DNA of 64,000 nt from an uncultured Gammaproteobacteria bacterium. Lineage in GTDB: Bacteria > Patescibacteriota > Microgenomatia > Levybacterales > GWA1-39-11. The notes beneath the pieces were generated by a model. It worked only from the letters and a program-made list of their open reading frames with translations, did no database searches and was not told where the DNA came from. The stretch spans positions 18,015 to 82,014 of the forward strand of contig CAZEGF010000006.1 in assembly GCA_964511965.1 (NCBI GenBank). The letters are read 5' to 3'. Shown piece by piece: positions 17,451 through 59,902 of this stretch (position 1 is the first letter of the stretch; the number at the start of each line of letters is the position of its first letter). The translations under genes and the position numbers were made by a program.

Positions 17451-17536
17451 TTTCTTGGGGCTACCGGAAATAAAACTAGGCGGGAGAAACGAAGTGCTCT
17501 TGAAAAAGAAATCTTAAACCAAAGGAGGTGAAATAT

Positions 17537-18808
17537 ATGACAAATTTCAAAAAACAAATTTTCTCAGTAGTCGCAGCTGGATCTCTACTCGTAAGCGTAG
17601 CAACTCCAGTTCTTGCGGATACTACAATACAAATTTCTGGAAACGGAGCTGGTTCAGACAACTATACAAAAGTTGAACAAACCAACACAAACACCGTTAG
17701 CCAGAATAACACAGCAAATGTCACCAACAATGTTACCTCAAATGCAGACACAGGAAACAACAAAGCTGGTTTTAACACAGGAGGCGATGTCAACATCGGC
17801 ACTGGAAAAGCTACAACCGTTGCAAACGTAACCAACACTTTGAACAGCAATGCTGCTCAAATTGCAGGATGCAATTGTGAAGGAGACACTAATGTTAAGA
17901 TTTCCGGAAACGGAGCTAAATCTGACAATACCGTTACTTTGAAAGATACGAATGTAAATTCAATCGGACAAAATAACGTTGCTAACGTTACCAACAATGT
18001 TGATAACAATGCAAATTCTGGTGGCAACACTGCAAATAGCAACACAGGTGGAGATGTAATGATCAACACCCAAGGAGCTACAGCTGTTTCAAACGTTACG
18101 ACCGTTGCAAATGCAAATTCTGCAATGATCGGAGGCGGAGCTGGAGCTGGACACAATTCTGCTTCTTTTGTAATTTCTGGTAATGGTGCAGGAAGCGACA
18201 ACTGGATTGACGCTAAACTCAACAATACCAATTCTGTTTCACAAGGAAATACAGCAAATGTTACAAACAATGTTGATTCTGATGCTAAAACAGGATACAA
18301 CGATGCAGGATTTAATACCGGAGGCGATGTAATGATCGGCACCGGAGCTGCTTGGTCAGAAGCAAACGTAGACAATATGGTTAACTTTAATTCAGCTAAC
18401 CTCGACTGCGGATGTGTAACTGATGTACTTGCTAAAATCGACGGAAATGGCGCTACACCTGAAGGCCACGGATACTGGGACTTCTGGAACAAGAATGATA
18501 ATACTATCCTTCTTGATTTAGTTAACGCTAATAACGTTGGACAAGGTAACAATTCTTACCTCAATAACAAAGTCAATGCTGACGCAAAGACCGGAGGTAA
18601 CGATGCTGACCTTAATACCGGTGACACTTATGGATCTGATCCATCAATCGGAACCGGACCAGCAACTAACGTAACCGATGTAAATAACAGCGGAAACGTT
18701 AACACTGTTGGAGGAACACCATTTGTAATCCCAATGCCTGGTGATTCAAGTGTTTCTATTTCTTTCAACTTTCAAGCTTTAATGGCATTCTTCGGAATGC
18801 ACGTTTAG
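17537..18808 (+). CDS. secreted Asn/Thr/Gly-rich repeat protein (4 x ~90-aa repeats, each ending in CxC)
   Basis: Signal peptide MTNFKKQIFSVVAAGSLLVSVATPVLA. Repeat units begin ISGNGAGSDN and contain NTGGDV.IGTG and NCxC/DCGC. Strong SD AGGAGGTG 8 nt upstream of the ATG at 17537. Confidence 0.7.
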   Translation: MTNFKKQIFSVVAAGSLLVSVATPVLADTTIQISGNGAGSDNYTKVEQTNTNTVSQNNTANVTNNVTSNADTGNNKAGFNTGGDVNIGTGKATTVANVTNTLNSNAAQIAGCNCEGDTNVKISGNGAKSDNTVTLKDTNVNSIGQNNVANVTNNVDNNANSGGNTANSNTGGDVMINTQGATAVSNVTTVANANSAMIGGGAGAGHNSASFVISGNGAGSDNWIDAKLNNTNSVSQGNTANVTNNVDSDAKTGYNDAGFNTGGDVMIGTGAAWSEANVDNMVNFNSANLDCGCVTDVLAKIDGNGATPEGHGYWDFWNKNDNTILLDLVNANNVGQGNNSYLNNKVNADAKTGGNDADLNTGDTYGSDPSIGTGPATNVTDVNNSGNVNTVGGTPFVIPMPGDSSVSISFNFQALMAFFGMHV

Positions 18809-18923
18809 TTTGATACAGAAACAAGTAGGGTGCTTTTGTTAGCACTTCGACAAGACCACCCTACAAGTTTCGAAACGACAAATAAACTTAAAACGAAAAA
18901 CTTAAAACTTAAAAACAAGAAAA

Positions 18924-21182
18924 ATGAATATTAAAAGAATACAACAATTACTGTCACTTACATTAATACTTGTTATATTTGTAGGAAAACTTGCAGTACC
19001 AATGGCTGTTCTTGCAGAAGATGCACCAACACCTCCTGCCGCACCATCTGCTCCTAGCGCACCGTCAGCACCATCTGCACCTACACCACCGGAACACAAC
19101 GACACTCCACCACCACCGCCTGCACCAAAACCACCCGTTAAAAATGACACTCCACCATCTGCACCAACACCACCACCAGCACCATCCGGTTCCACTGACG
19201 GACCAAGTGGTAACACACCAACTCAAAATCAAGAAGTAAATCCAACTACGACATCCGGAACCGGCGGAACAAATGGGAGTGGAAATGTAGGAGATACTAC
19301 TATTGGAACCGGGGAATCAAATGCTAACGGAAGCATTACAACAACGGGAAACAATAACACCGCTGTTAATGGAGGATGCAACACGTGTGCGGGTGGGAAC
19401 GGAACATCGGTTGGAAATTCGGGTAACGGGGTAGGTTCAAACAACAGCGCAACATCAAATGATAATAATTCAGCAACGACCGGCCAACACAACAGTGCAA
19501 ATGTTGCAAACAATCTTACACTTGGTAGTAATTCGGGCAACAATAACGCTTCATTTAATGTAGGTGATTCCTCAATAACAACTCAAGATGCTAACACAAC
19601 AGGAACCGTTATAACTTCTCTTAATACAAATGTAGATGGGGTTGCGGTTGCAACATTTGATGTAGCAGATAATCACACCGGAGACATTATACTTGCTCCT
19701 GGAAATGCAACAAGCAGCTGTACAAATGGATGTGGAGCAACTAACAATACTTCAAACACGGCAAACGGGGCTAATTCAACAAATAATGCATCAAACAATT
19801 CAACGAATAACAGTATTACAGACCAATCAAATAATGCTGTAATTGGAAGTACTCTTGATCTTACTGCAAACTCAGGTGATAACCAATCAAGCTTTAACAC
19901 CGGAGGAGATTCTTCAATAACAACAGGAGACGCAAATGTATCAGCAAATGTACTCACAATGGCTAACAATAATATCGCCGGAAATGTCCTTTACAACGTT
20001 GTTAATATATATGGTAACTTGGTCGGAGATATTATCCTTCCTCAATCAACAATTGACTCGCTTCTTTGCAACACTTGCGGAGGTTCATCGACTTCAAATA
20101 ATAAAAATGGTGACAATTCAACAAATACGGCTTCAAATAACACTACAAACAATTCAACTACAAATCAAAGCAATAATGCACAAATTGACAACAACATAAA
20201 TATAAATGGAACAACGGGAAATAATGACTCAAGCTACAACACGGGAGGAAATTCTGATATTCAAACAGGAGCTTCAAATGTTGTTGCAAATGTACTTAAC
20301 GTCGCAAATACTAATATTGATGGAGGAACATGGTGGTTGGTTATTGTTAACCAAGCTGGAAAATGGATTGGAAAGATTGTCGGATCACCTGACGGAGCTA
20401 ACATGGCTGGAAGTGCCGGAACAGAATTTGAAGTAGATCCAATAACAGGTGAAGTAACAGCAGTTGGTGCAAACACTTCAAATAGTGGAAATGGCGACAA
20501 TACAACAAATACAGCTTCAAACAACACTACAAATAACTCAACAACAACTCAAAGTAATGACGCTAAAATACAAAACAACTTAAATCTAACGGCAAACACA
20601 GGTGGTAATGCAACAAACTTTAATACTGGTGGAAATTCAAATATCAAAACAGGAGATGTTAATGTCATTGCAAATCTAGTCAACTTCGTCAACAACAACA
20701 TAACCGGAGGCGGTAAATTAGTTGTCACGGTTGTTAATGTATTTGGTAGCTGGATTGGAGACTTCGTAGCACCCGGACAACAAAAACAGGCACATAATAC
20801 TACTTCAGGAAGTTCAAACGGTGGAGGGTCAAATAACAACAATAATAATGGAAACTCAAATTCTGGAGGATCATCTATAGTATCCGGAGCTAAAGGAAAT
20901 GCTTTGATAACTGCAAATGTTGATAATTCCGGTAACACAAACACTTATGGCGCAGGAAGCGTTGAAGGTGCAAATACAACCGGCGGATCTACCCACAATG
21001 AGGCTACTGTTGCAAAAAGCGTAGGGCAAGACGGTTCTGCGACAGTAGCTAAAAAAACAATCGCAATAAATCTCGCATGGTTACTCCTTGCGCTTCCATT
21101 GTTTGGGATCGCAATGATTGCTAAAAAATCTTTTGTTCCTGTCCGAACACTCGCGATACGGGGAATACATCTCTTCTTGTGA
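18924..21182 (+). CDS. large secreted Asn/Thr/Gly-rich repeat protein with a Pro-rich stalk and C-terminal TM anchor
   Basis: Signal peptide, an (APS)n/PPPP linker, then about 130-aa repeats (..CNTCGG...NTGGNS.I.TGDANV.ANV..VGDIILP). C-terminal hydrophobic helix followed by KK. Confidence 0.7.
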   Translation: MNIKRIQQLLSLTLILVIFVGKLAVPMAVLAEDAPTPPAAPSAPSAPSAPSAPTPPEHNDTPPPPPAPKPPVKNDTPPSAPTPPPAPSGSTDGPSGNTPTQNQEVNPTTTSGTGGTNGSGNVGDTTIGTGESNANGSITTTGNNNTAVNGGCNTCAGGNGTSVGNSGNGVGSNNSATSNDNNSATTGQHNSANVANNLTLGSNSGNNNASFNVGDSSITTQDANTTGTVITSLNTNVDGVAVATFDVADNHTGDIILAPGNATSSCTNGCGATNNTSNTANGANSTNNASNNSTNNSITDQSNNAVIGSTLDLTANSGDNQSSFNTGGDSSITTGDANVSANVLTMANNNIAGNVLYNVVNIYGNLVGDIILPQSTIDSLLCNTCGGSSTSNNKNGDNSTNTASNNTTNNSTTNQSNNAQIDNNININGTTGNNDSSYNTGGNSDIQTGASNVVANVLNVANTNIDGGTWWLVIVNQAGKWIGKIVGSPDGANMAGSAGTEFEVDPITGEVTAVGANTSNSGNGDNTTNTASNNTTNNSTTTQSNDAKIQNNLNLTANTGGNATNFNTGGNSNIKTGDVNVIANLVNFVNNNITGGGKLVVTVVNVFGSWIGDFVAPGQQKQAHNTTSGSSNGGGSNNNNNNGNSNSGGSSIVSGAKGNALITANVDNSGNTNTYGAGSVEGANTTGGSTHNEATVAKSVGQDGSATVAKKTIAINLAWLLLALPLFGIAMIAKKSFVPVRTLAIRGIHLFL

Positions 21183-22288
21183 TACGAAAGGCGGTTATTT
21201 TCATAATCTGCCTCATTGCAAACCTCACATTAACCAATCATGTAAAAGCCGATGAGATTGTCGTTAATGTCAACGGAAACGGATCCGGATCAACTAATCA
21301 AGTACAAGTCACTTCTCAAAATACTACCCAAGTTAGTCAAAATAATGATGCAAGTGTAACAAATAATACGACTTCAAATGCAAATACCGGCAACAATAAC
21401 GCCTCAAATAATACCAATGGGAGTGCGACAATTTCAACAGGAGATGCCACTTCATCAACTGCCGTTAACAATCAAAATATTAATTCAAATGCTGCAGATA
21501 CTAATTGTGGATGCCAAAGTAGCTCTTCAGTTACAGTTTCAGGTAACGGAGCAGGTTCTAATAATTATGTAAATGGCTCAAATTCAAATTCTGCCTCCGT
21601 TAACCAAACAAATAATGCATCAATTCAAAATAACGCAACTACAAACGCCAATACCGGCTACAATGAAGCTTCTTACAATGGTAACGGTTCTACATTTATT
21701 ATGACTGGAAGCATTTACTCAACGACAAAAATAAACAACAAAAATATTAATAACAGCGCATACTTTGGTGCAACAGGTCTTGAGAGTAGCTTTTTATCTA
21801 TTTCCGGAAATGGGGACGGATCAGACAACTTAGTAGCATTTACCAACAACGTTAGCGTAGTTGTAACTAATACAAATGTAGCAACAATTAATAATAATGT
21901 AGAAAATAATTTAAATACTGGAGGAAATAAAACTCTTGGAAATTTGGGTGATGTAGCTATAGTAACCGGGGGGATCATAAATGATGTAACGGTTAATAAC
22001 GAAAATATAAATAGCAGTTTTGTAGAAGTTGTATGTGGTTGTAAAACTCCGGAATCACCGGAGCACCCAAATCCTCCATCCACTTCAACACCGGGAAGTT
22101 CAATTGTTCAGGGGTCAAGCGGTAGCTCAAGTTCAGGATCATCAAATGGAACCCCAGGAAATGTTCTTCCAGTTACCGGAAGTTCTATTCCATGGTCACT
22201 TTTTGCAACACTTGTGTTATTCTTCATGTTCCTTTCAGGGCTGTATCTGCGTTTCCATGGGGCTAATGCACCTCCATCAAGAGTTTAG
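21179..22288 (+). CDS. LPXTG-anchored Asn/Thr-rich repeat surface protein
   Basis: Signal peptide and three family repeats ending in NCGC/VCGC. The C-terminus is LPVTG, then a hydrophobic helix, then a basic tail (LYLRFHG): a sortase sorting signal. Confidence 0.75.
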   Translation: MIRKAVIFIICLIANLTLTNHVKADEIVVNVNGNGSGSTNQVQVTSQNTTQVSQNNDASVTNNTTSNANTGNNNASNNTNGSATISTGDATSSTAVNNQNINSNAADTNCGCQSSSSVTVSGNGAGSNNYVNGSNSNSASVNQTNNASIQNNATTNANTGYNEASYNGNGSTFIMTGSIYSTTKINNKNINNSAYFGATGLESSFLSISGNGDGSDNLVAFTNNVSVVVTNTNVATINNNVENNLNTGGNKTLGNLGDVAIVTGGIINDVTVNNENINSSFVEVVCGCKTPESPEHPNPPSTSTPGSSIVQGSSGSSSSGSSNGTPGNVLPVTGSSIPWSLFATLVLFFMFLSGLYLRFHGANAPPSRV

Positions 22289-22344: not shown

Positions 22345-22387
22345 TGTCATTGTGAGGAGTCCTGCGAAGTAGGACGACGAAGCAATC
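22345..22387 (+). repeat. GIY-YIG-associated repeat copy with a 16-bp internal insertion; inverted partner of 22695-22721
   Basis: TGTCATTGtGAGgagtcctgcgaagtaggacgaCGAAGCAATC. Abuts the GIY-YIG stop codon. Confidence 0.65.
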
Positions 22388-22722
22388 TAAAGTAATTCAT
22401 CATACAAATCTTTCCAATCTTTATTTTTTGTTTCAATCAAATCAATTTTTTTCTTTCTTGACCCTCCCATTATCTGTTTTTCCCGACTAATAGCTTCGTA
22501 TGGGGTCTGGAAAATTTCAAAATATACCAGCTTATGCACATTGTATTTAGAAGTAAAACTTTCAACAGCGCTATTTTTATGTTGCCAAACACGTCTTATC
22601 AAATCTTCAGTTACTCCCGTATATAAAACTTTATTGTTAAAGTTTGTAAGAATGTAAACATAATACTGTTTGTTTCTCACCAATATAGTATAAAGATTGC
22701 TTCGCTTCGCTCGCAATGACAT
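22387..22722 (-). CDS. GIY-YIG nuclease family protein
   Basis: YYVYILTNFNNKVLYTGVTEDLIRRVWQHKN is the GIY-YIG core, about 110 aa. The N-terminus (MSLRAKRSNL) is encoded by the repeat. An alternative start lies at 22743. Confidence 0.8.
   Translation of the reverse strand: MSLRAKRSNLYTILVRNKQYYVYILTNFNNKVLYTGVTEDLIRRVWQHKNSAVESFTSKYNVHKLVYFEIFQTPYEAISREKQIMGGSRKKKIDLIETKNKDWKDLYDELL
22695..22721 (-). repeat. GIY-YIG-associated repeat (reverse orientation; its reverse complement is TGTCATTGCGAGCGAAGCGAAGCAATC)
   Basis: Forms the 5' end of the GIY-YIG ORF and the upstream region of the sortase gene. Inverted relative to 22345-22387. Confidence 0.7.
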
Positions 22723-22744
22723 ATTGCGTGCTACAATACACAAA

Positions 22745-23302: not shown

Positions 23303-23365
23303 TGATTAATGGTTGATGCTTGATGGTTAATTAACTATTAGTCATTTATCATTAGCGATAAATGT
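23300..23365. repeat. AT-rich imperfect palindromic TGATG-rich element directly after a stop codon (family member 1)
   Basis: TAATGATTAATGGTTGATGCTTGATGGTTAAT ... TTAACTATTAGTCATTTATCATTA. The arms are approximate reverse complements. Confidence 0.5.
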
Positions 23366-23439
23366 AGTGTATGGGGGAAGAACGGAAAACAAACTTTTCG
23401 GTTTGCTCAATTCTCCCCCCGGGTACACCTTGTCGGCGG

Positions 23440-23739
23440 TTAAGCTGTCACATTCTGTTCTTGCCGTATCAGGTCCTTGAGGGCTTCGGAGAACTCCGGT
23501 AAGTCTTGAATTGGCATTTCCCGAACGTATTCGATGGCGTTGTTAATGTCATCGATGGCCGCGTTAATGCAAGACAAAACCCATTTCCGCCTCTCTTCAG
23601 CCGAAGTTCCAGTTGGCAGAGGAGTGCCGTGGGGGGTGGCGAGGACGCGTTGGCTGTGAAGGACGTTGCTTGCCCCTTTGATTCGCGCCGCCGCGTGATC
23701 GAGTCTTTCCCACGCGTTGATGGTTTTGATCGAAGTCAC
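23440..23739 (-). CDS. hypothetical small protein (MTSIK family, GC-rich island)
   Basis: GTG start with a GAGGAGG SD 6 nt upstream. Paralogous to the 23791..24192 gene (shared MTSIKxxNA N-terminus and a W.L..NA.DD...A.E C-half). High-GC codon usage. Confidence 0.5.
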   Translation of the reverse strand: MTSIKTINAWERLDHAAARIKGASNVLHSQRVLATPHGTPLPTGTSAEERRKWVLSCINAAIDDINNAIEYVREMPIQDLPEFSEALKDLIRQEQNVTA

Positions 23740-23790
23740 TTTTTGCCTCCTCAGGCTTGCCCCTTCTACGGGGCGGAATTGGGACGAAAC

Positions 23791-24192
23791 CTAGTTCCCG
23801 TCAGATGGCGGGTTCGTGATTTCGTAGGTCTGCAGCTTGCTAGCTGGTTTCACTTGCGCAAGGCGAAAGGCTTCCGCGACTGTGCTGACACCGACGATTT
23901 GGAGTGGTCTGCGATTCCGTTGGCTGATCATGCTTTTCACCTCTTCAGAGAGAGGCGGGACTTCGCCGTCCGGGATGGACTTTATGTGTTCCATAGCGAC
24001 CCGAAGGTCGTCCATGGCGTTCATCAGGCCCAACATGAGCCATGTCCGGCTTCCGTCGGGCGTGTCGCTACCTGGGAGATCCCCAAGCTGCGATGCGATC
24101 AGGTTGGATTCCAGGGCATCGTAGATTTCACTGGCCCTGGCATTGCCTTGCCTGATCCTGTCCATTGCGTTGGTTGCTTTGATAGATGTCAC
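23791..24192 (-). CDS. hypothetical small protein (MTSIK family paralog, GC-rich island)
   Basis: GTG start with a GAGGAGG SD. Paralog of the 23440..23739 gene. Confidence 0.5.
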   Translation of the reverse strand: MTSIKATNAMDRIRQGNARASEIYDALESNLIASQLGDLPGSDTPDGSRTWLMLGLMNAMDDLRVAMEHIKSIPDGEVPPLSEEVKSMISQRNRRPLQIVGVSTVAEAFRLAQVKPASKLQTYEITNPPSDGN

Positions 24193-24447
24193 TTGTTGCC
24201 TCCTCAGGCTTGCCCCACTTAAATGGGAATGGTCGTAATTGTCACCGGTTACAGCCGGGTGAGAAATATGGTCGTAAGGATCAAGCCCAGGATCAGAAAC
24301 GCTAAACGCGCACCACCTCCTAGTTCCTTGATCATAGAGTTGAGAATTAGGAACACTCCCAACAAGCCAATGAACCAGGTATAAATGGTTGCCTCCTCAG
24401 GCCGATTTGGCCGCGTTGTACGCGGTATAGATCGTGAATTCAGATGT

Positions 24448-24789
24448 TTAGGGCTGTTGAGAAGACTCTCCCTCAGAAGGTACTTTTCCGAGTGATTGGG
24501 CTATGATGTAGATTTGCAACTTGCTCCTGCCTTCAGCATTACGCTTCAGGACTTCCGGCATGAGGACAATGTCCTCTTCGTTGGGGTCAATCAACTCAAT
24601 TTCGGCAAGCCGCCCGTGCAATTGCGCGTACAGCTTGGCTTTGAAGTTGTAAAGCCCCATCAGATCCGCTTTTGACATTGAGAGTACTGCTTCAGCAGTC
24701 TTGACGCCGTTTCGCATCAGGTTGTTGTAGACGCGATTTGTGAAACCGATCACACTTAAAGGAGTTTCCCCCTCAAGATGGATTGCCAT
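24448..24789 (-). CDS. hypothetical helix-hairpin-helix DNA-binding protein (RNAP alpha-CTD-like)
   Basis: LSVIGFTNRVYNNLMRNGVKTAEAVLSMSKADLMGLYNFKAKLYAQL resembles an HhH/alpha-CTD fold. ATG start with a GAGGAGG SD. High GC. Confidence 0.4.
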   Translation of the reverse strand: MAIHLEGETPLSVIGFTNRVYNNLMRNGVKTAEAVLSMSKADLMGLYNFKAKLYAQLHGRLAEIELIDPNEEDIVLMPEVLKRNAEGRSKLQIYIIAQSLGKVPSEGESSQQP

Positions 24790-24820
24790 GAACTTGTCCT
24801 CCTCAGGCGTTTTTGATTAA

Positions 24821-24867
24821 GTTTTCGCTCGCACAACCTCGTCAGACGGGGCTCTGCGAGCGAAAAC
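24821..24867. promoter_or_regulatory. 13-bp perfect inverted repeat with a 21-bp spacer (GTTTTCGCTCGCA-N21-TGCGAGCGAAAAC); candidate operator or recombination site
   Basis: Lies upstream of the first island gene on the minus strand. No U-tract on either strand, so it is unlikely to be a terminator. Confidence 0.4.
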
Positions 24868-25050: not shown

Positions 25051-25650
25051 CTAGTTAGTGTTTGTAGATCCACCAACTTCTACTCCAACTGAGTTTGATG
25101 CTGGATTAGTGGTAACTGTGTTACCTCCTCCAACATTAAAACTTTGGCTGTTTCCACCTGTATTGGCACTAGACCATACATTTGTATTTACCGCAGTTGT
25201 ATTTGTTTGACTAACAACCGTAGAATTGCTGTTAATCACTACAGCTTTTGACGAGCTAAATGCTCCTCCACCTGTGACGGTTACTGTATTTGAGTTACTA
25301 TCACAACCACAATTTGATGTGTTTGTGTTAGTTCCTCCTGTGACTGATACACCAACGATGTTGGTAGCAGCGCCTGTGGTGATGCTGTTTGAACCACCAT
25401 TTCCTACATTAAAGCTTTGTTTGTTTTTACCGGTATTAGCGGACAAACCAGCCCATGTATTTACAGCGGTTGTATTATCTTGAACAGTAGTTGATGATGA
25501 AATGTTTTTAACTATAGCTTTTGTGTAGCTAAAAGAACCATTTCCGGTAACAGTAACAGTATTTGTTGCTGCAAATGATGCTGGGGCTACTACGCTCACC
25601 ATCATTGTACCGATTGCAACTGCTGATGCGATTTTTTGTTTGATATTCAT
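25051..25650 (-). CDS. secreted Asn/Thr-rich repeat protein (2 repeats, each ending in NCGCDSNSN)
   Basis: Signal peptide MNIKQKIASAVAIGTMMVSVVAPASFA. Same family as 17537-22288. Its 5' UTR AAGGAGGTGAAATATATG is identical to that of the 17537 gene. Confidence 0.65.
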   Translation of the reverse strand: MNIKQKIASAVAIGTMMVSVVAPASFAATNTVTVTGNGSFSYTKAIVKNISSSTTVQDNTTAVNTWAGLSANTGKNKQSFNVGNGGSNSITTGAATNIVGVSVTGGTNTNTSNCGCDSNSNTVTVTGGGAFSSSKAVVINSNSTVVSQTNTTAVNTNVWSSANTGGNSQSFNVGGGNTVTTNPASNSVGVEVGGSTNTN

Positions 25651-25926
25651 ATATTTCACCTCCTTTTTATTGGGATACTCCTGCCGAACCGAATGATGAA
25701 AAAAACCACAAAAAAATCCCTCGATAAACTCAGGATTTTAATTTTTGGCAGTTTATATTCATATCAGGCAGGTCAAAAGGAAATGAATTCAGGGTTCTAA
25801 GGGGCAACGTAGAACGTTAATGTTAGTTATTATATGCTAGTGTCCAGCAGGTCTGTCAAGACTAACAATCTATATATTTATATTATCAAAGATATCATCT
25901 TATATTTATTTTTTGAGGTCGCTTCC

Positions 25927-56293: not shown

Positions 56294-57565
56294 ATGGTTG
56301 CAAATGACGAAGCTTTAAAAGCGATACAAAAGAAATTGGTTGGTAAAACTCTTAACTATAAAGAGATTTATTCCATCATGGATGAAATTTCGCATGATAG
56401 ACTTGGAGATGTTTTAACTACTTATTTTGCCGCTTCCGGATATTCAAAAGGATTTACGTATGATGAGATTTATTTCTTAACAAAGGCTATGGTTGAAACC
56501 GGGGAGAAACTTCATTTCGAAGGGATTGTTGCAGACAAACATTCAATTGGGGGTCTTCCGGGAACAAGAGCCACTATGATTATCGTTCCAATTATTGCCT
56601 CAGCCGGCTTTAAAATTCCAAAAAGTTCGTCCCGTGCAATTACAACTCCTGCTGGGACCGCTGATTCAATGGAGTGTTTAGCAAATGTCACATTTGATGA
56701 AAAACAAATATATGAAATTGTAAAAAAGACAAATGCCTGTATTGTGTGGGGAGGAAGTTTTAAGATTGCCCCGGCTGATGACGAGATCATTCATGTTGAA
56801 GAACCTTTAGCACTTGAAAGTTTTGACAAAATTTTAGTGTCTGTAATGGCTAAAAAAATTGCTTTTGGTTCAAATCATGTTGTAATAGATATACCTTATG
56901 GTCCGACTATGAAAGTGCATCACAAAGAAGATGCAGAACTACTCGCTAAAAAATTCAAATATATAGCCAAAAGATTTGATATTAAACTTGAAACACTTAT
57001 CGCACATTCTCACCAGCCTGCAGGAAATGGTATTGGTCCACTTCTAGAAGCAAAAGATGCCTTGAAAGTTTTGGAGCAAACCGATGATAGACCATTGGCT
57101 CTTGAGAATAAGTCGGTTGAGCTTGCCGCCAAGCTACTTGAGTTATGTCTTGAGGATGCCGATAGTGATATAAAAAATGTTGCTGCGAAATACGAAACAA
57201 CACATGCCTGGGCGCACGACATTTTAGTAAGCGGAAAAGCTCACTCAAAAATGATCGAGATAATAGATGCTCAAAATGGTGACCCAAGTGTACTATCAAC
57301 CAAACTTCATGCAGGTCCTAAAACTAAAGAAGTAAAGACAGATAAGTCAGGTGTTATTAGAAGCATTAATAACAATAACGTTTCAATCGTAGCAAAAGTG
57401 CTTGGAGCCCCTCAAGATCATAGAGCTGGTCTATTTTTGAGAAAGAGGGTTGATGATAAAATTACTAACGGTGAAGTTATATTTGATATGTATTCAGAAA
57501 CAGATCACAGATTAGCCGAAGCCCACGATTCTCTACAGATGTTCCCACTTTATAAAATAGAGTAA
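56294..57565 (+). CDS. thymidine/pyrimidine-nucleoside phosphorylase family (AMP-phosphorylase-like)
   Basis: Glycosyltransferase family 3 signature DKHSIGGLPGTR and a TTPAGTADS motif. SD AAAGGAGGAGGG. Confidence 0.85.
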   Translation: MVANDEALKAIQKKLVGKTLNYKEIYSIMDEISHDRLGDVLTTYFAASGYSKGFTYDEIYFLTKAMVETGEKLHFEGIVADKHSIGGLPGTRATMIIVPIIASAGFKIPKSSSRAITTPAGTADSMECLANVTFDEKQIYEIVKKTNACIVWGGSFKIAPADDEIIHVEEPLALESFDKILVSVMAKKIAFGSNHVVIDIPYGPTMKVHHKEDAELLAKKFKYIAKRFDIKLETLIAHSHQPAGNGIGPLLEAKDALKVLEQTDDRPLALENKSVELAAKLLELCLEDADSDIKNVAAKYETTHAWAHDILVSGKAHSKMIEIIDAQNGDPSVLSTKLHAGPKTKEVKTDKSGVIRSINNNNVSIVAKVLGAPQDHRAGLFLRKRVDDKITNGEVIFDMYSETDHRLAEAHDSLQMFPLYKIE

Positions 57566-57587
57566 GCAAATATATAAGCCTGTAGTA

Positions 57588-57616
57588 TTGACTTTCCCCT
57601 CAAATTAGTGTATAAT
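57588..57616 (+). promoter_or_regulatory. near-consensus sigma70 promoter TTGACT-N17-TATAAT
   Basis: gtaTTGACTttcccctcaaattagtgTATAATgcaaccc, about 60 nt upstream of the GC-rich DUF262-like gene. Confidence 0.55.
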
Positions 57617-57677
57617 GCAACCCGCATCTCGTCAGAAATGATGAGGTAGCTCATTGACATGGCTAGGCTTACTTTGA

Positions 57678-58787
57678 GTGCCAGCCAAGGAGATCCCGGT
57701 GTCCGTTCGTCTTACCCACTTCGCCCTGGACGAGTTCGAATGCGCAACTGTGTTGCGTGGCGTACTCGATCCTGACACTCTGGAGGACATCCTAGTGGAT
57801 GTTTACCAGAGGGAAGTCCTCCACCAGGAGGGAAAGAAGCACAGCCTCATCGAGGCTTTGCGCAACGGCGCCCGCGTTCCCGATGTTGAAATCGGCATGC
57901 GCGGAGACAACTTCTCCATCGAGGGAGAAGGAGAGGGCTTCATCGTCCTCAACGACCCGGCCTACATCGTCGACGGCCTGCAGCGCATCAGCTCCGGTAT
58001 CGCTGTGATGAGAGAGGGCATTCGCCCTCACATCGGAGCGACTATCCACTTCAACACAGATAAGGTGTGGGAGAAGGATCGGTTCAAGACGCTGAATCAG
58101 GACCGCGTTCGTGTCAGCACGAACATCTTGCTCCGCAACTTGGGAGAGGAGAACGCCGCAATAGCGGTTTTGCTCCAACTCACCAGGTCGGATAAGGCGT
58201 TCGCCATGAACGGTCGTGTTTGCTGGAATCAGCAGATGGCTCGCAGCGAGCTCATCACCGCCCTCACCTTTGCGAAGGTGATTGGGAGGCTTCACATGCA
58301 CGTGGGTCCGACCGGCAACAGCCAGGTCGACCTGCTCGCTGATGGTCTCCAGACGGTAATGAATGCCGTTGGCAAGCAGGTTTTCAAGGACAACATCAAG
58401 ACGTTCTTCGACGTCATCGACAGGATGTACGGTGTCAAGCGCGTAACCTTTACGCGTGGGGCGGTGTACATGAGGGGGTCCTTCCTCCTTGCCTTGGCGA
58501 AGTTGTTCTCGAACCACTTGGAGTTCTGGAAGGACGAGAAGCGCTTCTTCGTTGAGGCGCCACTCGTACGGAAGTTGTCCACCTTCCCCATCGGAGATCC
58601 TCATGTCATCTCCCTTGCCTCCTCCGGAGGCAAGGCGATCGACCTGTTGTACCTCCTGATGGTGGAACACGTGAACAGCGGCAAGCGCACGAAGCGTCTG
58701 ACAGCACGTAACTACGTGCCGTTGTCCTCGGAAGTGGACGATGATGCTGATGACGGCGACAACAATCCAGAAGAGCCGGCTGCCTAG
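57678..58787 (+). CDS. DUF262 / ParB-like nuclease-fold protein with a DGxQR motif (GmrSD N-domain / DndB-like relative); GC-rich, likely acquired
   Basis: DVYQREV...HSLIEALRNGARVPDVEI...AYIVDGLQRISSG matches the DUF262 pattern (QR..W...LidSi..g.piP.i...iDGQQR). Clearly higher GC than the flanks. GTG start. Confidence 0.55.
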   Translation: MPAKEIPVSVRLTHFALDEFECATVLRGVLDPDTLEDILVDVYQREVLHQEGKKHSLIEALRNGARVPDVEIGMRGDNFSIEGEGEGFIVLNDPAYIVDGLQRISSGIAVMREGIRPHIGATIHFNTDKVWEKDRFKTLNQDRVRVSTNILLRNLGEENAAIAVLLQLTRSDKAFAMNGRVCWNQQMARSELITALTFAKVIGRLHMHVGPTGNSQVDLLADGLQTVMNAVGKQVFKDNIKTFFDVIDRMYGVKRVTFTRGAVYMRGSFLLALAKLFSNHLEFWKDEKRFFVEAPLVRKLSTFPIGDPHVISLASSGGKAIDLLYLLMVEHVNSGKRTKRLTARNYVPLSSEVDDDADDGDNNPEEPAA

Positions 58788-58871
58788 TCACTTAGTAGGT
58801 TTGTGAGTATAACCTGATGAACCAGTGTATCTGAATAAGACGCGCTGGGGGGTCGTAAACTCTCACCAATG

Positions 58872-58913
58872 GCCCCGCCTGCGCGAAAGCAAAGGCGGGG
58901 CTTTCTCGTTTTG
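58872..58913 (+). terminator. rho-independent terminator GCCCCGCCT-(12 nt)-AGGCGGGGC then TTTCTCGTTTT
   Basis: 9-bp GC-rich stem and a T-rich tail, 85 nt after the stop of the DUF262-like gene. Confidence 0.7.
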
Positions 58914-58948
58914 AACCCAAAATACCTTGTGGTAAAATAGGAAACGTA

Positions 58949-59902
58949 ATGCGAAAGTTCTCCATATTAATCATCCTTGCCGCTGTCATTTTCGTCTTTG
59001 TCTCACTTTGGTGGAATAACGGTTTATCTGCAGTAGATAGCCACGATAAATCTCAAAAATTCTTTGTTATTCCAAAAGGAACGGCTATAAGAACGGTCGG
59101 AAACGAGCTAAAATCCCAAAAGTTAATAAAAGATCCAGTTGTCTTCTTTATATATATTAAGCTTAATAATTTAGATCACGATATACAGGCTGGGTCATAC
59201 CGTTTGTCTTCATCGATGAGCCTGCCTCAAATTATGGAAACACTTGGGCATGGTACTGTTGACATATGGGTTACAATTCCAGAGGGGCTTCGCTCTGAAG
59301 AAATTGCGGCAATTCTTAAAGAAAGCATTCCAACTTATAAGCCTGAATGGATTGAACGTTTGTCTTCTGAGGAGGGATATCTTTTCCCTGACACATATCT
59401 GATACCACGTGATGCAACAATTGACTCAATAATTACCCTTCTTGAGAACAATTTCTACAAGAAAGTCATGACAGTTGGATTGACAAAGGATTCTCCACAT
59501 CTTAATAAAATTGTGACTGAAGCATCACTTATCGAGCGTGAGGCTAAATTTGAAGAAGATAGGCCGTATGTTGCTTCAGTTCTTGAAAATAGACTTGCTA
59601 TCGGCATGGCTCTGCAAATAGATGCGACTGTGCAGTATGTTACCGGTTACAATCAAACGACCAAGAAGTGGTGGAATCAGCCTGCTCCTTATCAGTTAAA
59701 GGTTTCATCTCCATACAATACATATATAAATACCGGTTTACCGCCTGCTCCAATATGTAATCCAGGTCTTTCTGCAATACAAGCAGCAGTGAATCCAAAG
59801 GATACTAACTATATATATTATGTAAATGATTCAAAAGGCAAGCTTCATTTTGCAGAAAATTTATCCGATCACAATAAAAATATACAAAAGTATTTGAACT
59901 AA
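58949..59902 (+). CDS. mltG: endolytic murein transglycosylase MltG (YceG-like)
   Basis: N-terminal TM plus YceG domain motifs (IPEGL..EI, GLPPAPICNPG). Confidence 0.85.
   Translation: MRKFSILIILAAVIFVFVSLWWNNGLSAVDSHDKSQKFFVIPKGTAIRTVGNELKSQKLIKDPVVFFIYIKLNNLDHDIQAGSYRLSSSMSLPQIMETLGHGTVDIWVTIPEGLRSEEIAAILKESIPTYKPEWIERLSSEEGYLFPDTYLIPRDATIDSIITLLENNFYKKVMTVGLTKDSPHLNKIVTEASLIEREAKFEEDRPYVASVLENRLAIGMALQIDATVQYVTGYNQTTKKWWNQPAPYQLKVSSPYNTYINTGLPPAPICNPGLSAIQAAVNPKDTNYIYYVNDSKGKLHFAENLSDHNKNIQKYLN

Follow-up and report, generated by a model that had tools for sequence, protein, structure and literature searches.

Why does a single GC-rich gene stand between a thymidine/AMP-phosphorylase-like (TP) gene and mltG in an otherwise AT-rich bacterial chromosome, and how did it come to be there? 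We addressed this question in a 64,000-nt stretch of contig CAZEGF010000006.1 (assembly GCA_964511965.1, positions 18,015 to 82,014; referred to here as the window, with coordinates counted from its first nucleotide). The host belongs to Candidatus Levybacteria (Patescibacteria, within the candidate phyla radiation [CPR]), as assigned by the taxonomy of the closest TP homologues. The original prediction, made from the sequence alone, had placed a solitary, acquired gene of DUF262 type at 57588-58913 and had proposed a role in defense or modification sensing. We found that the gene is the only one held by an inserted cassette, that this cassette is a horizontally mobile, self-contained promoter-leader-gene-terminator module resembling a phage moron, and that the encoded protein is a new, uncharacterized branch of the DGQHR/DUF262 (ParB/Srx) superfamily.

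The existence and the limits of the insert were determined from strains that lack it. Metagenomes were searched with the upstream TP-like protein, and contigs encoding the identical TP protein were also looked up. These searches recovered both the filled and the empty allele from the same species. Among at least 10 assemblies with a 100% identical TP protein, seven loci were filled and three were empty. The filled allele was 99.9 to 100% identical in these seven loci from independent samples (ENA, JGI, and Logan), and both junctions matched base for base. The empty-site strains (L077, L120, L121, and L123) had flanks that were 99.3 to 99.6% identical to the window, with mltG located 34 nt after the TP stop codon. 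Alignment to these strains set the cassette limits at 57567-58918, slightly wider than the originally predicted extent, which nevertheless marked a real feature. The cassette stands in place of 3 nt (TGT) of the empty allele, and its left end lies 1 nt past the TP stop codon (TAA-G). Within the species the cassette is polymorphic, being present in some strains and absent from others. The physical unit and the adjoining tracts, all on the forward strand, are as follows.

57567..58918, forward strand: inserted cassette of 1,352 bp (promoter, leader, open reading frame [ORF], 3' untranslated region [UTR], and terminator)
58919..59041, forward strand: right-hand co-conversion (recombination) tract, comprising the native mltG promoter and first codons with donor-type variants
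57427..57566, forward strand: possible, weakly supported left-hand recombination tract in the 3'-terminal part of the TP-like gene

Differences between the filled and the empty strain were concentrated beside the insert. In the right flank, 18 of the 24 differences over 3,248 nt fell within the first 125 nt (binomial P = 4e-21), and many of these right-tract variants were common to a divergent genome, L007 (Logan DRR274959). In the left flank, 3 of 17 differences (57427, 57430, and 57547) were located in the last 140 of 4,469 nt. The cassette of L007 was 98.9% identical to that of the window and had exactly the same junctions, in flanks that were far less similar (TP 3' end, ~75% nucleotide identity; mltG, 61% protein and 66% nucleotide identity). 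A vertical co-divergence of cassette and flanks as the only history was rejected, given cassettes of 98.9% identity beside mltG proteins of 61%. In L008, an allele with 67% identity stands straight after the same TP stop codon; its contig breaks off within the gene and does not reach the mltG side. Lineages whose TP was 87%, 78%, and 69% identical had no cassette. The same cassette, including ~145 nt of upstream sequence, was also present in unrelated contexts (L030/L038 and L032/L042). Because the right-flank differences cluster beside the insert and a near-identical cassette occurs in the divergent L007, we conclude that the cassette arrived, and spreads between related genomes, by homologous recombination via the flanking genes, together with ~120 nt of donor flank. 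Three findings bear out the predicted foreign acquisition of the gene: the same-species empty-site allele, the adjoining co-conversion tract, and the cassette of the divergent L007, which hardly differs from that in the window.

No target-site duplication or terminal inverted repeats were found at the cassette ends, and no recombinase, integrase, or transposase gene was found within the cassette; these three results ruled out a transposon- or integrase-type insertion. The sharp 18-point GC jump limited to one gene could raise the suspicion that the assembly is chimeric, or reads through into a contaminant, at 57.6 and 58.9 kb; a chimera had been named in advance as an outcome that would undo the prediction. 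Such an artifact is excluded for practical purposes because seven loci from independent samples carry the insert with identical junctions. The same junctions also occur in the divergent L007 and, on the left, in L008, and the promoter region within the insert has an AT-rich, host-like composition.

The pattern at this junction also bears on a different origin, in which the gene would be a free-standing, homing-endonuclease-like selfish gene. Its protein would nick or cut the empty TP-mltG junction or a nearby site in genomes without the cassette, and repair templated by a genome that has it would bring in the gene with its flanking markers. Three diverged lineages, whose sister lineages are empty, carry the cassette at an identical junction behind the TP stop codon (both sides in the window and L007; the left side only in L008), and the co-conversion tract beside the insert is steep. 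A 98.9% identical cassette lies amid 66 to 75% identical flanks, and at such divergence RecA recombination without aid should work very poorly. The cassette also has its own promoter and terminator and a foreign composition, without an integrase or transposase, and relatives are accessory genes between conserved phage genes. However, DNA uptake followed by ordinary recombination would yield the same pattern, natural competence being assumed for these bacteria, and the insertion contexts differ in almost all of the 68 genome loci described below. Together with the protein evidence given further on, these points make the homing explanation unlikely in our estimation, although it is the chief rival of the account that we prefer.

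The composition of the cassette differs sharply from that of its surroundings, as originally predicted. The GC content was 0.56 to 0.57 over 57600-58800, compared with a window mean of 0.384 (standard deviation, 0.045; 500-nt windows), and 0.563 over the whole cassette (57567-58918), compared with 0.38. The GC content at third codon positions (GC3) was 0.76 in the cassette gene, vs 0.27 in the TP-like gene, 0.32 in mltG, and 0.24 in rpoB. Only one comparable GC island was found elsewhere in the 64 kb (~23.3 to 24.8 kb). Third-position identity between the window and L008 was 0.50 in the cassette gene and 0.46 in the adjacent TP gene, and both alleles have a GC3 of ~0.75 in genomes with a GC3 of ~0.3. 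A more AT-rich allele was observed in L117 (positions 1-1148; Logan SRR29748427), which encodes a 63% identical protein, has the leader core in common with the window, and has a GC content of 0.457 and a GC3 of 0.45. Some copies evidently drift toward the AT-rich host composition, while others hold a GC3 of ~0.75. The retained GC3 could arise if alleles are replaced time and again from a GC-rich pool, if selection acts on GC, or if repair during recombination is biased toward GC. The differences between the window and L007 (n = 15) provided too few informative sites to be polarized for ongoing amelioration.

An overlapping antisense gene (292-aa ORF, 57792..58670) was considered as a cause of the high GC content and was rejected, since 22% of synonymous-codon shuffles gave an antisense frame at least as long. 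The antisense frame at 57792-58670 is a by-product of the GC3-rich codons. Public gene callers have annotated this shadow ORF (270 to 331 aa; reverse strand) instead of the real gene in most assemblies of the locus (L119, L122, L124, L126, and L127).

The cassette carries a full set of expression signals, listed below with the coding region.

57588..57616, forward strand: sigma-70-type promoter TTGACT-N17-TATAAT, AT-rich and inside the insert
57620..57698, forward strand: conserved non-coding 5' leader of ~80 nt with two hairpins and a Shine-Dalgarno sequence
57624-57650, forward strand: leader hairpin 1, with a GAAA loop
57660-57687, forward strand: leader hairpin 2, an imperfect palindrome (GGCTAGGC-N11-GCCAGCC) that ends at the Shine-Dalgarno sequence
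57687-57692, forward strand: Shine-Dalgarno sequence AAGGAG, 6 nt before GTG 57699
57699..58787, forward strand: protein-coding gene, 362 aa from the probable start GTG 57699
58871..58913, forward strand: intrinsic terminator with a 10-bp GC-rich stem, which includes an inner 2-bp helix and leads into a U-tract

The promoter matched the consensus at 11 of 12 positions and was the top site of the region, and both hexamers are kept in L008; the near-consensus promoter of the original prediction was therefore recovered. The promoter and 5' UTR (57575-57715) were 81 to 93% identical between the window and L008, whereas the coding sequence (CDS) and the flanking TP gene were ~66% identical. The leader core, GGCTAGGCTTACTTTGAGTGCC(A/G)GCCAAGGAG, is also located upstream of the L117 allele (63% identical protein). 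The leader is non-coding, as a 1-nt insertion/deletion (indel) relative to L008 shifts the frame. RNAfold gave a leader fold of -28.9 kcal/mol (z = -2.1), with a single compensatory pair in the hairpins. Leader conservation was not found family-wide and was limited to the lineage of the window, L007, L008, and L117. The leader and 3' UTR contained no known RNA family, the only match being a chance snoRNA match (21 bits vs a gathering score of 90), and no Rfam families or tRNAs were found anywhere in the window.

The predicted 369-aa ORF was found between the TP-like gene and mltG, where mechanical calling from GTG gives 57678..58787 on the forward strand. The true start is probably GTG 57699 (362 aa) rather than GTG 57678, because the AAGGAG Shine-Dalgarno sequence precedes the former, the 1-nt L008 indel lies between 57678 and 57699, homologues align only from 57699, and one public gene call is 362 aa. 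At the other end, the terminator consists of GGCCCCGCCU...AGGCGGGGCU at 58871-58902 and UUUCUCGUUUU to 58913, and its 3' end lies 5 nt inside the right border of the insert. A pattern scan passed over it (loop of >8 nt), and RNAfold of 58785-58918 recovered it (-50.7 kcal/mol; 3' UTR z = -3.8 vs shuffles), so the strong GC-rich terminator originally described also stands. Beyond it, at 58911-58938, the insertion has remade the mltG promoter: the -35 hexamer (TTGAAC) consists of the last bases of the insert, and the extended -10 (TGGTAAAAT) is native. The cassette may thereby change mltG expression. The neighbors of the cassette gene are TP, YceG, and sortase genes.

The protein was divided into three regions on the basis of motifs and modeled structure (residue numbers follow the 369-aa ORF).

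57699..58157, forward strand: N-terminal domain of predicted ParB/Srx fold (DUF262/DGQHR-like), with three motifs
58158..58712, forward strand: family-specific, predicted all-helical C-terminal domain with conserved residues
58713..58784, forward strand: predicted disordered, acidic C-terminal tail (SSEVDDDADDGDNNPEEPAA), of variable length across the family

The QR pair, the DGQ(Q/H)R pentapeptide, and FxxxN are the defining motifs of DGQHR/DUF262 domains (Machnicka et al., PMC4619093). All three are present in the window protein: Y43-Q44-R45-E46 (the QR pair), D99-G100-L-Q102-R103, and F136-x-x-x-N140. The signature first read from the sequence (YQRE and IVDGLQRISS) is thus real, and the matching positions are invariant or near-invariant among 33 homologues. 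In the 33-member alignment, Y43, Q44, R45, D99, G100, R103, F136, and N140 were invariant, Q102 was conserved in at least 90%, and the third pentapeptide position was L or Q. An AlphaFold2 model built with this alignment (pLDDT, 87.5) gave the N-terminal domain a ParB/Srx fold, in agreement with Foldseek matches to PDB. In BFVD, the best whole-length structural matches were viral GmrSD_N-only, "sulfur modification" (DndB-like), and ParB/Srx proteins of 300 to 380 aa. The C-terminal domain had conserved residues of its own (W183, Q185, H206, H208, D248, H280, W284, D307, and an H331-x-N333-S-G-K-R-T motif) and no structural match among solved structures. Residues 355-369 had a pLDDT below 50, and most homologues have acidic tails.

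Sequence profiles gave fainter matches. The profile check proposed with the original prediction (HMMER with PF03235, plus structure) found the ParB fold together with a Pfam GmrSD_N (DUF262, PF03235) match over residues 38-136 of 18.3 bits (E = 0.0027), below the 33.2-bit gathering threshold. Fifteen of 33 relatives matched GmrSD_N, none of them reaching the threshold (best E = 1.1e-4). No match to the protein came from NCBIfam, whose collection includes the TIGR DGQHR/DndB models; with the limit relaxed to E <= 10, PADLOC still gave 0 families; searching the PDB sequences with a profile returned nothing relevant; and PHROGs gave a weak match to a family of unknown function.

These results bear on whether the protein could be a nuclease, as the homing explanation would have it. 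Some ParB/Srx-fold proteins, Osa and GmrS among them, have been proposed to act as nucleases (PMC4619093). In GmrSD, BrxU, and SspE, however, DUF1524 is credited with the cutting, and DUF262 is given the role of an NTPase (PMC10952713). No HNH/DUF1524 domain was found in the protein by Pfam and structure searches. The known homing-endonuclease catalytic families (LAGLIDADG, GIY-YIG, HNH, His-Cys, PD-(D/E)xK, and EDxHD) were likewise absent by Pfam, NCBIfam, and structure, the sole HNH hint being a PHROG match with E = 0.16, and the C-terminal domain is purely helical in the model.

The ratio of nonsynonymous to synonymous substitution rates (dN/dS) was ~0.35 vs L007 and ~0.19 vs L008, values that indicate purifying selection on the gene. 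This range (0.19 to 0.35) speaks against a phage-derived passenger without present function in the cell, i.e., neutral cargo spread by recombination and not yet decayed. The foreign composition, the accessory status, and the lack of a conserved genomic partner are what such a passenger would show. On the other hand, the promoter and leader are strong and conserved, the gene is retained in genomes streamlined to about 1 Mb, and the frames are intact in most of the >60 genome loci translated. We regard a passenger as very improbable.

To place the gene in a wider context, relatives were collected from cellular and viral sequences. A word-seeded search gave 212 relatives (~340 to 370 aa) with no Pfam domain, and an exhaustive profile search gave 526 clusters at 50% identity among 1.84 billion representatives. 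A genome scan with one genome per species gave 68 loci, of which 45 were labeled as Patescibacteria lineages and 10 as unspecified "bacterium"; the remainder were doubtful bins or Acidobacteria, Planctomycetota, and Armatimonadota. The gene was richer in GC than its flanks in 61 of 65 genome loci (mean, +9.7 points GC and +22 points GC3), and in low-GC hosts the GC island was usually limited to the single gene.

As predicted, the gene is solitary: no DUF1524/HNH partner was found in the 64 kb, among Pfam matches listed for 25 of 69 families, and no general conserved neighbor or partner gene was found across the 68 genome loci. The best partner candidate was an unannotated, clade-specific protein (~250 to 300 aa) directly downstream in 7 of 69 loci. 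In these loci (L006 7055-7903, L021 7071-7973, L044, L049, L050, L054, and L068; mostly labeled Saccharibacteria), a 222- to 300-aa protein directly follows the gene with a gap of -28 to +90 nt. It has an N-terminus that looks like a helix-turn-helix (HTH) and no Pfam or PHROG match, and it is a candidate partner within this lineage. A VirD4/TraG-like type IV coupling protein is encoded directly upstream of the gene in five loci (L021/L001 2332-4980, L053, L064, and L065), which suggests that some copies ride on conjugative or mobilizable islands. A small protein with a ParB-like nuclease domain (DGFHR motif) overlaps the gene start in L060 (11-727), L061 (5099-6007), L072 (5492-6016), and L115 (2576-3541), i.e., in three non-Patescibacteria genome loci (Acidobacteria/Armatimonadota metagenome-assembled genomes) and related viral contigs. 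A Cas4-like exonuclease gene lies 3' of the gene in L108 and L115; this three-gene arrangement was absent from Patescibacteria.

The viral relatives point to the likely source. The gene is carried by 33 viral loci in IMG/VR, and its neighbors on viral contigs encode an Erf-like annealing protein, RecE-like and Cas4-like exonucleases, a ParB-like nuclease, an MT-A70 methyltransferase, a PrimPol primase, and a T4-type portal. No match was found among INPHARED phages or PLSDB plasmids. On phage contigs the GC content of the gene equaled that of its flanks (0.557 vs 0.559; p = 0.8), whereas in cellular genomes it was markedly higher (0.575 vs 0.476; p = 4e-11). In a neighbor-joining tree, viral sequences were basal to, and also interspersed with, cellular ones. 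The gene is accessory in phages, being carried by 6 of the 47 phage loci with the same upstream gene family. Judging from composition and context, the simplest reading is that this is an accessory gene of phage replication/recombination modules that was repeatedly captured by Patescibacteria and then passed among them. Repeated capture from phages would explain why the gene looks GC-rich and foreign in nearly all Patescibacteria. Besides the details of the locus, the original prediction did not anticipate that this ~360-aa family is accessory in phages and widespread in Patescibacteria, that the cassette spreads by recombination at one junction, or that the leader is more conserved than the CDS.

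The wider survey also bears on the proposed defense role, i.e., a minimal type IV restriction or modification-sensing system in which a lone DUF262 NTPase senses modified or foreign DNA and then cuts it, depletes nucleotides, or signals an unlinked host effector. The DUF262-type motifs and fold fit this proposal, and DUF262 proteins without DUF1524 are essential in Menshen, Dazbog, and PD-T4-2 (PMC10952713). Defense genes, too, typically vary in presence between strains and are often transferred horizontally. Yet no PADLOC model matched, although PADLOC covers GmrSD, BrxU, SspE, Menshen, and Dazbog, and the protein has no nuclease domain and no conserved partner. The cassette travels alone between genomes, so any partner would need to be universal, and the family occurs in phage replication/recombination modules rather than in defense islands. 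The proposed function was a guess from distant relatives, and we consider it doubtful, while the motifs and the fold on which it was built have held. Among the 55 window ORFs, PADLOC gave cross-matches only, which we take to be housekeeping genes (an FtsK/SpoIIIE protein with SspH, and TGT with DpdA).

The account that we prefer joins these lines of evidence. The cassette is a phage-moron-type unit of one gene with its own promoter, leader, and terminator, spread among related genomes by homologous recombination through flanking genes, and its source would be an accessory gene of phage replication/recombination modules, captured again and again by Patescibacteria. The protein would bind, and probably hydrolyze, an NTP, as suggested by the conservation of motifs and their roles in GmrSD, BrxU, and SspE. 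It may act as an NTP-gated DNA-binding switch, like DndB, KorB, and ParB, and not as a restriction nuclease. The palindromic leader upstream of the CDS is a probable binding site, with autoregulation as in DndB; this is a reasonable expectation because of the DndB precedent and because the leader is far more conserved than the CDS. No repeated binding sites were found inside the gene. The protein would probably also recognize similar sites in phages or mobile elements that enter the cell. A chromosomal copy under a strong promoter might then interfere with the replication or expression of phages sharing the protein-site pair and thus exclude them. In our best reading, the protein would be an NTP-gated DNA binder that serves in conflicts among mobile elements. 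The whole package (a mobile moron-like cassette, an uncharacterized ParB/DUF262-like family, phage origin, and an NTP-gated switch) has in our judgment about an even chance of being right, mostly owing to the part that states what the element is.

Several observations weigh against this account. Phage origin does not fully explain the GC3 of ~0.75 kept by the window and L008 alleles despite synonymous divergence as deep as that of TP, and the GC3 of the L117 allele has fallen to 0.45. The leader may be kept as an RNA structure or through recent recombination instead of as an operator, given one compensatory pair and three lineages. The DUF262 sequence similarity is sub-threshold, with no PADLOC or NCBIfam model matched. 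Most loci lie outside defense islands and lack a conserved neighbor. A more radical possibility is that the family propagates itself as a single-gene element of a new kind. Its ParB/Srx-fold protein would nick or cut DNA in an NTP-dependent manner, with the helical domain as a novel specificity module, and the gene would home into intergenic sites of phages and ultra-small Patescibacteria genomes; constant movement or recombination-linked GC-biased repair would hold GC3 well beyond the level of any cellular host. This, too, strikes us as improbable.

Patescibacteria have genomes of ~1 Mb with few recognized defense systems, and their gene flow is poorly understood. The locus resolves the movement of a single gene between their genomes to the base: alleles with and without the insert are represented, donor-type variants mark the recombined stretch, and a divergent species carries an almost identical copy. 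It also reveals an unannotated family of ~500 sequence clusters that ties Patescibacteria to phages and gives the DGQHR/DUF262 (ParB/Srx) superfamily a new, nuclease-free domain architecture. The family offers a test case for what the NTP-binding module does alone, whether it clamps DNA or acts as a repressor, serves as a sensor, or has nuclease activity. The GC excess (61 of 65 loci) is a simple compositional marker for such cassettes and raises the question of how the gene stays GC-rich in AT-rich hosts. If the family were a self-propagating element of the kind outlined above, the protein would represent a seventh catalytic class of homing endonucleases, in a gene-drive-like element of the CPR. 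In the literature, we found no papers linking DUF262 to Patescibacteria or ParB-like proteins to homing.

Elsewhere in the window, the second GC-rich island (23360-24860, reverse strand; GC content of 0.49 to 0.56 vs 0.38) contains four short genes, each after the same GCCTGAGGAGGCAA ribosome-binding context. One encodes a 113-aa RNA polymerase alpha-CTD-like protein (24448-24789), and two encode paralogues of 99 and 133 aa that both start with MTSIK (23440-23739 and 23791-24192). The island genes had no other Pfam match and no relative in IMG/VR; the island is probably another foreign cassette. Just upstream of it, overlapping the start of a sortase gene, a stand-alone 118-aa GIY-YIG protein is encoded at 22387-22743 on the reverse strand (Pfam E = 1.5e-15) and could be a free-standing nuclease tied to the island. 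Genes for large proteins, secreted or on the surface, that carry N/T/G/S-rich repeats are clustered at 17528-22288 and 25051-25659; sortase genes lie on the flanks of the cluster, and one member has a Pro/Ala-rich GC spike near 19,000.

Compared with known systems, the window protein shares only its fold with ParB, Noc, KorB, PadC, and pNOB8 ParB. It has no GERRxRA box, with DGLQRIS at the equivalent position, and it lacks a ParBc or HTH Pfam match, a recognizable dimerization domain, and a ParA partner; its gene is not core and is polymorphic within the species. The likeness to GmrSD, BrxU, and SspE is closer, in that the QR, DG(L/Q)QR, and FxxxN motifs that form the NTP pocket there are all kept. 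In contrast to these proteins, it is without the DUF1524 His-Me/HNH nuclease domain, is ~200 aa shorter, has an unrelated C-terminal domain, and has no PADLOC match. Neither a PADLOC model nor a partner was found that would place it among the known DUF262 defense systems (GmrSD, BrxU, SspE, Menshen, Dazbog, and PD-T4-2).

DndB/DGQHR proteins (PF14072, TIGR03187) resemble the window protein in being stand-alone proteins of ~360 aa with a ParB/Srx N-terminal domain (QR pair, DGQxR pentapeptide, and FxxxN) and a helical remainder, and the best whole-length structural matches in BFVD included proteins annotated as "sulfur modification" or "DNA-sulfur modification-associated." As a dimer, DndB binds to palindromes in the promoter of its own gene and represses it (PMC4507180). 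The ultra-conserved leader of the window gene likewise holds an imperfect palindrome, which the window protein might bind by analogy. The two differ in the motif, which is DG(L/Q)QR in the window family and not DGQHR, and in that the window gene is mobile and solitary. With the DndB models (PF14072/TIGR03187/TIGR03233), NCBIfam gave no match and Pfam DndB matched 1 of 33 members (E = 0.015). No dnd, ssp, or dpd genes were found nearby or elsewhere in the 64 kb, and no dnd genes were found among the neighbors of the 68 loci.

As a genetic unit, the cassette resembles phage morons and the free-standing homing genes of T-even phages. It differs from morons in lying in a bacterial chromosome outside any visible prophage, and from homing genes in having no known homing-endonuclease catalytic domain. 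With both it shares a single ORF with its own promoter and terminator placed precisely between two conserved genes, a deviant composition, patchy presence among relatives, and co-converted flanking markers. Patchy presence at one conserved site together with co-converted flanks is also the pattern of a free-standing homing gene.

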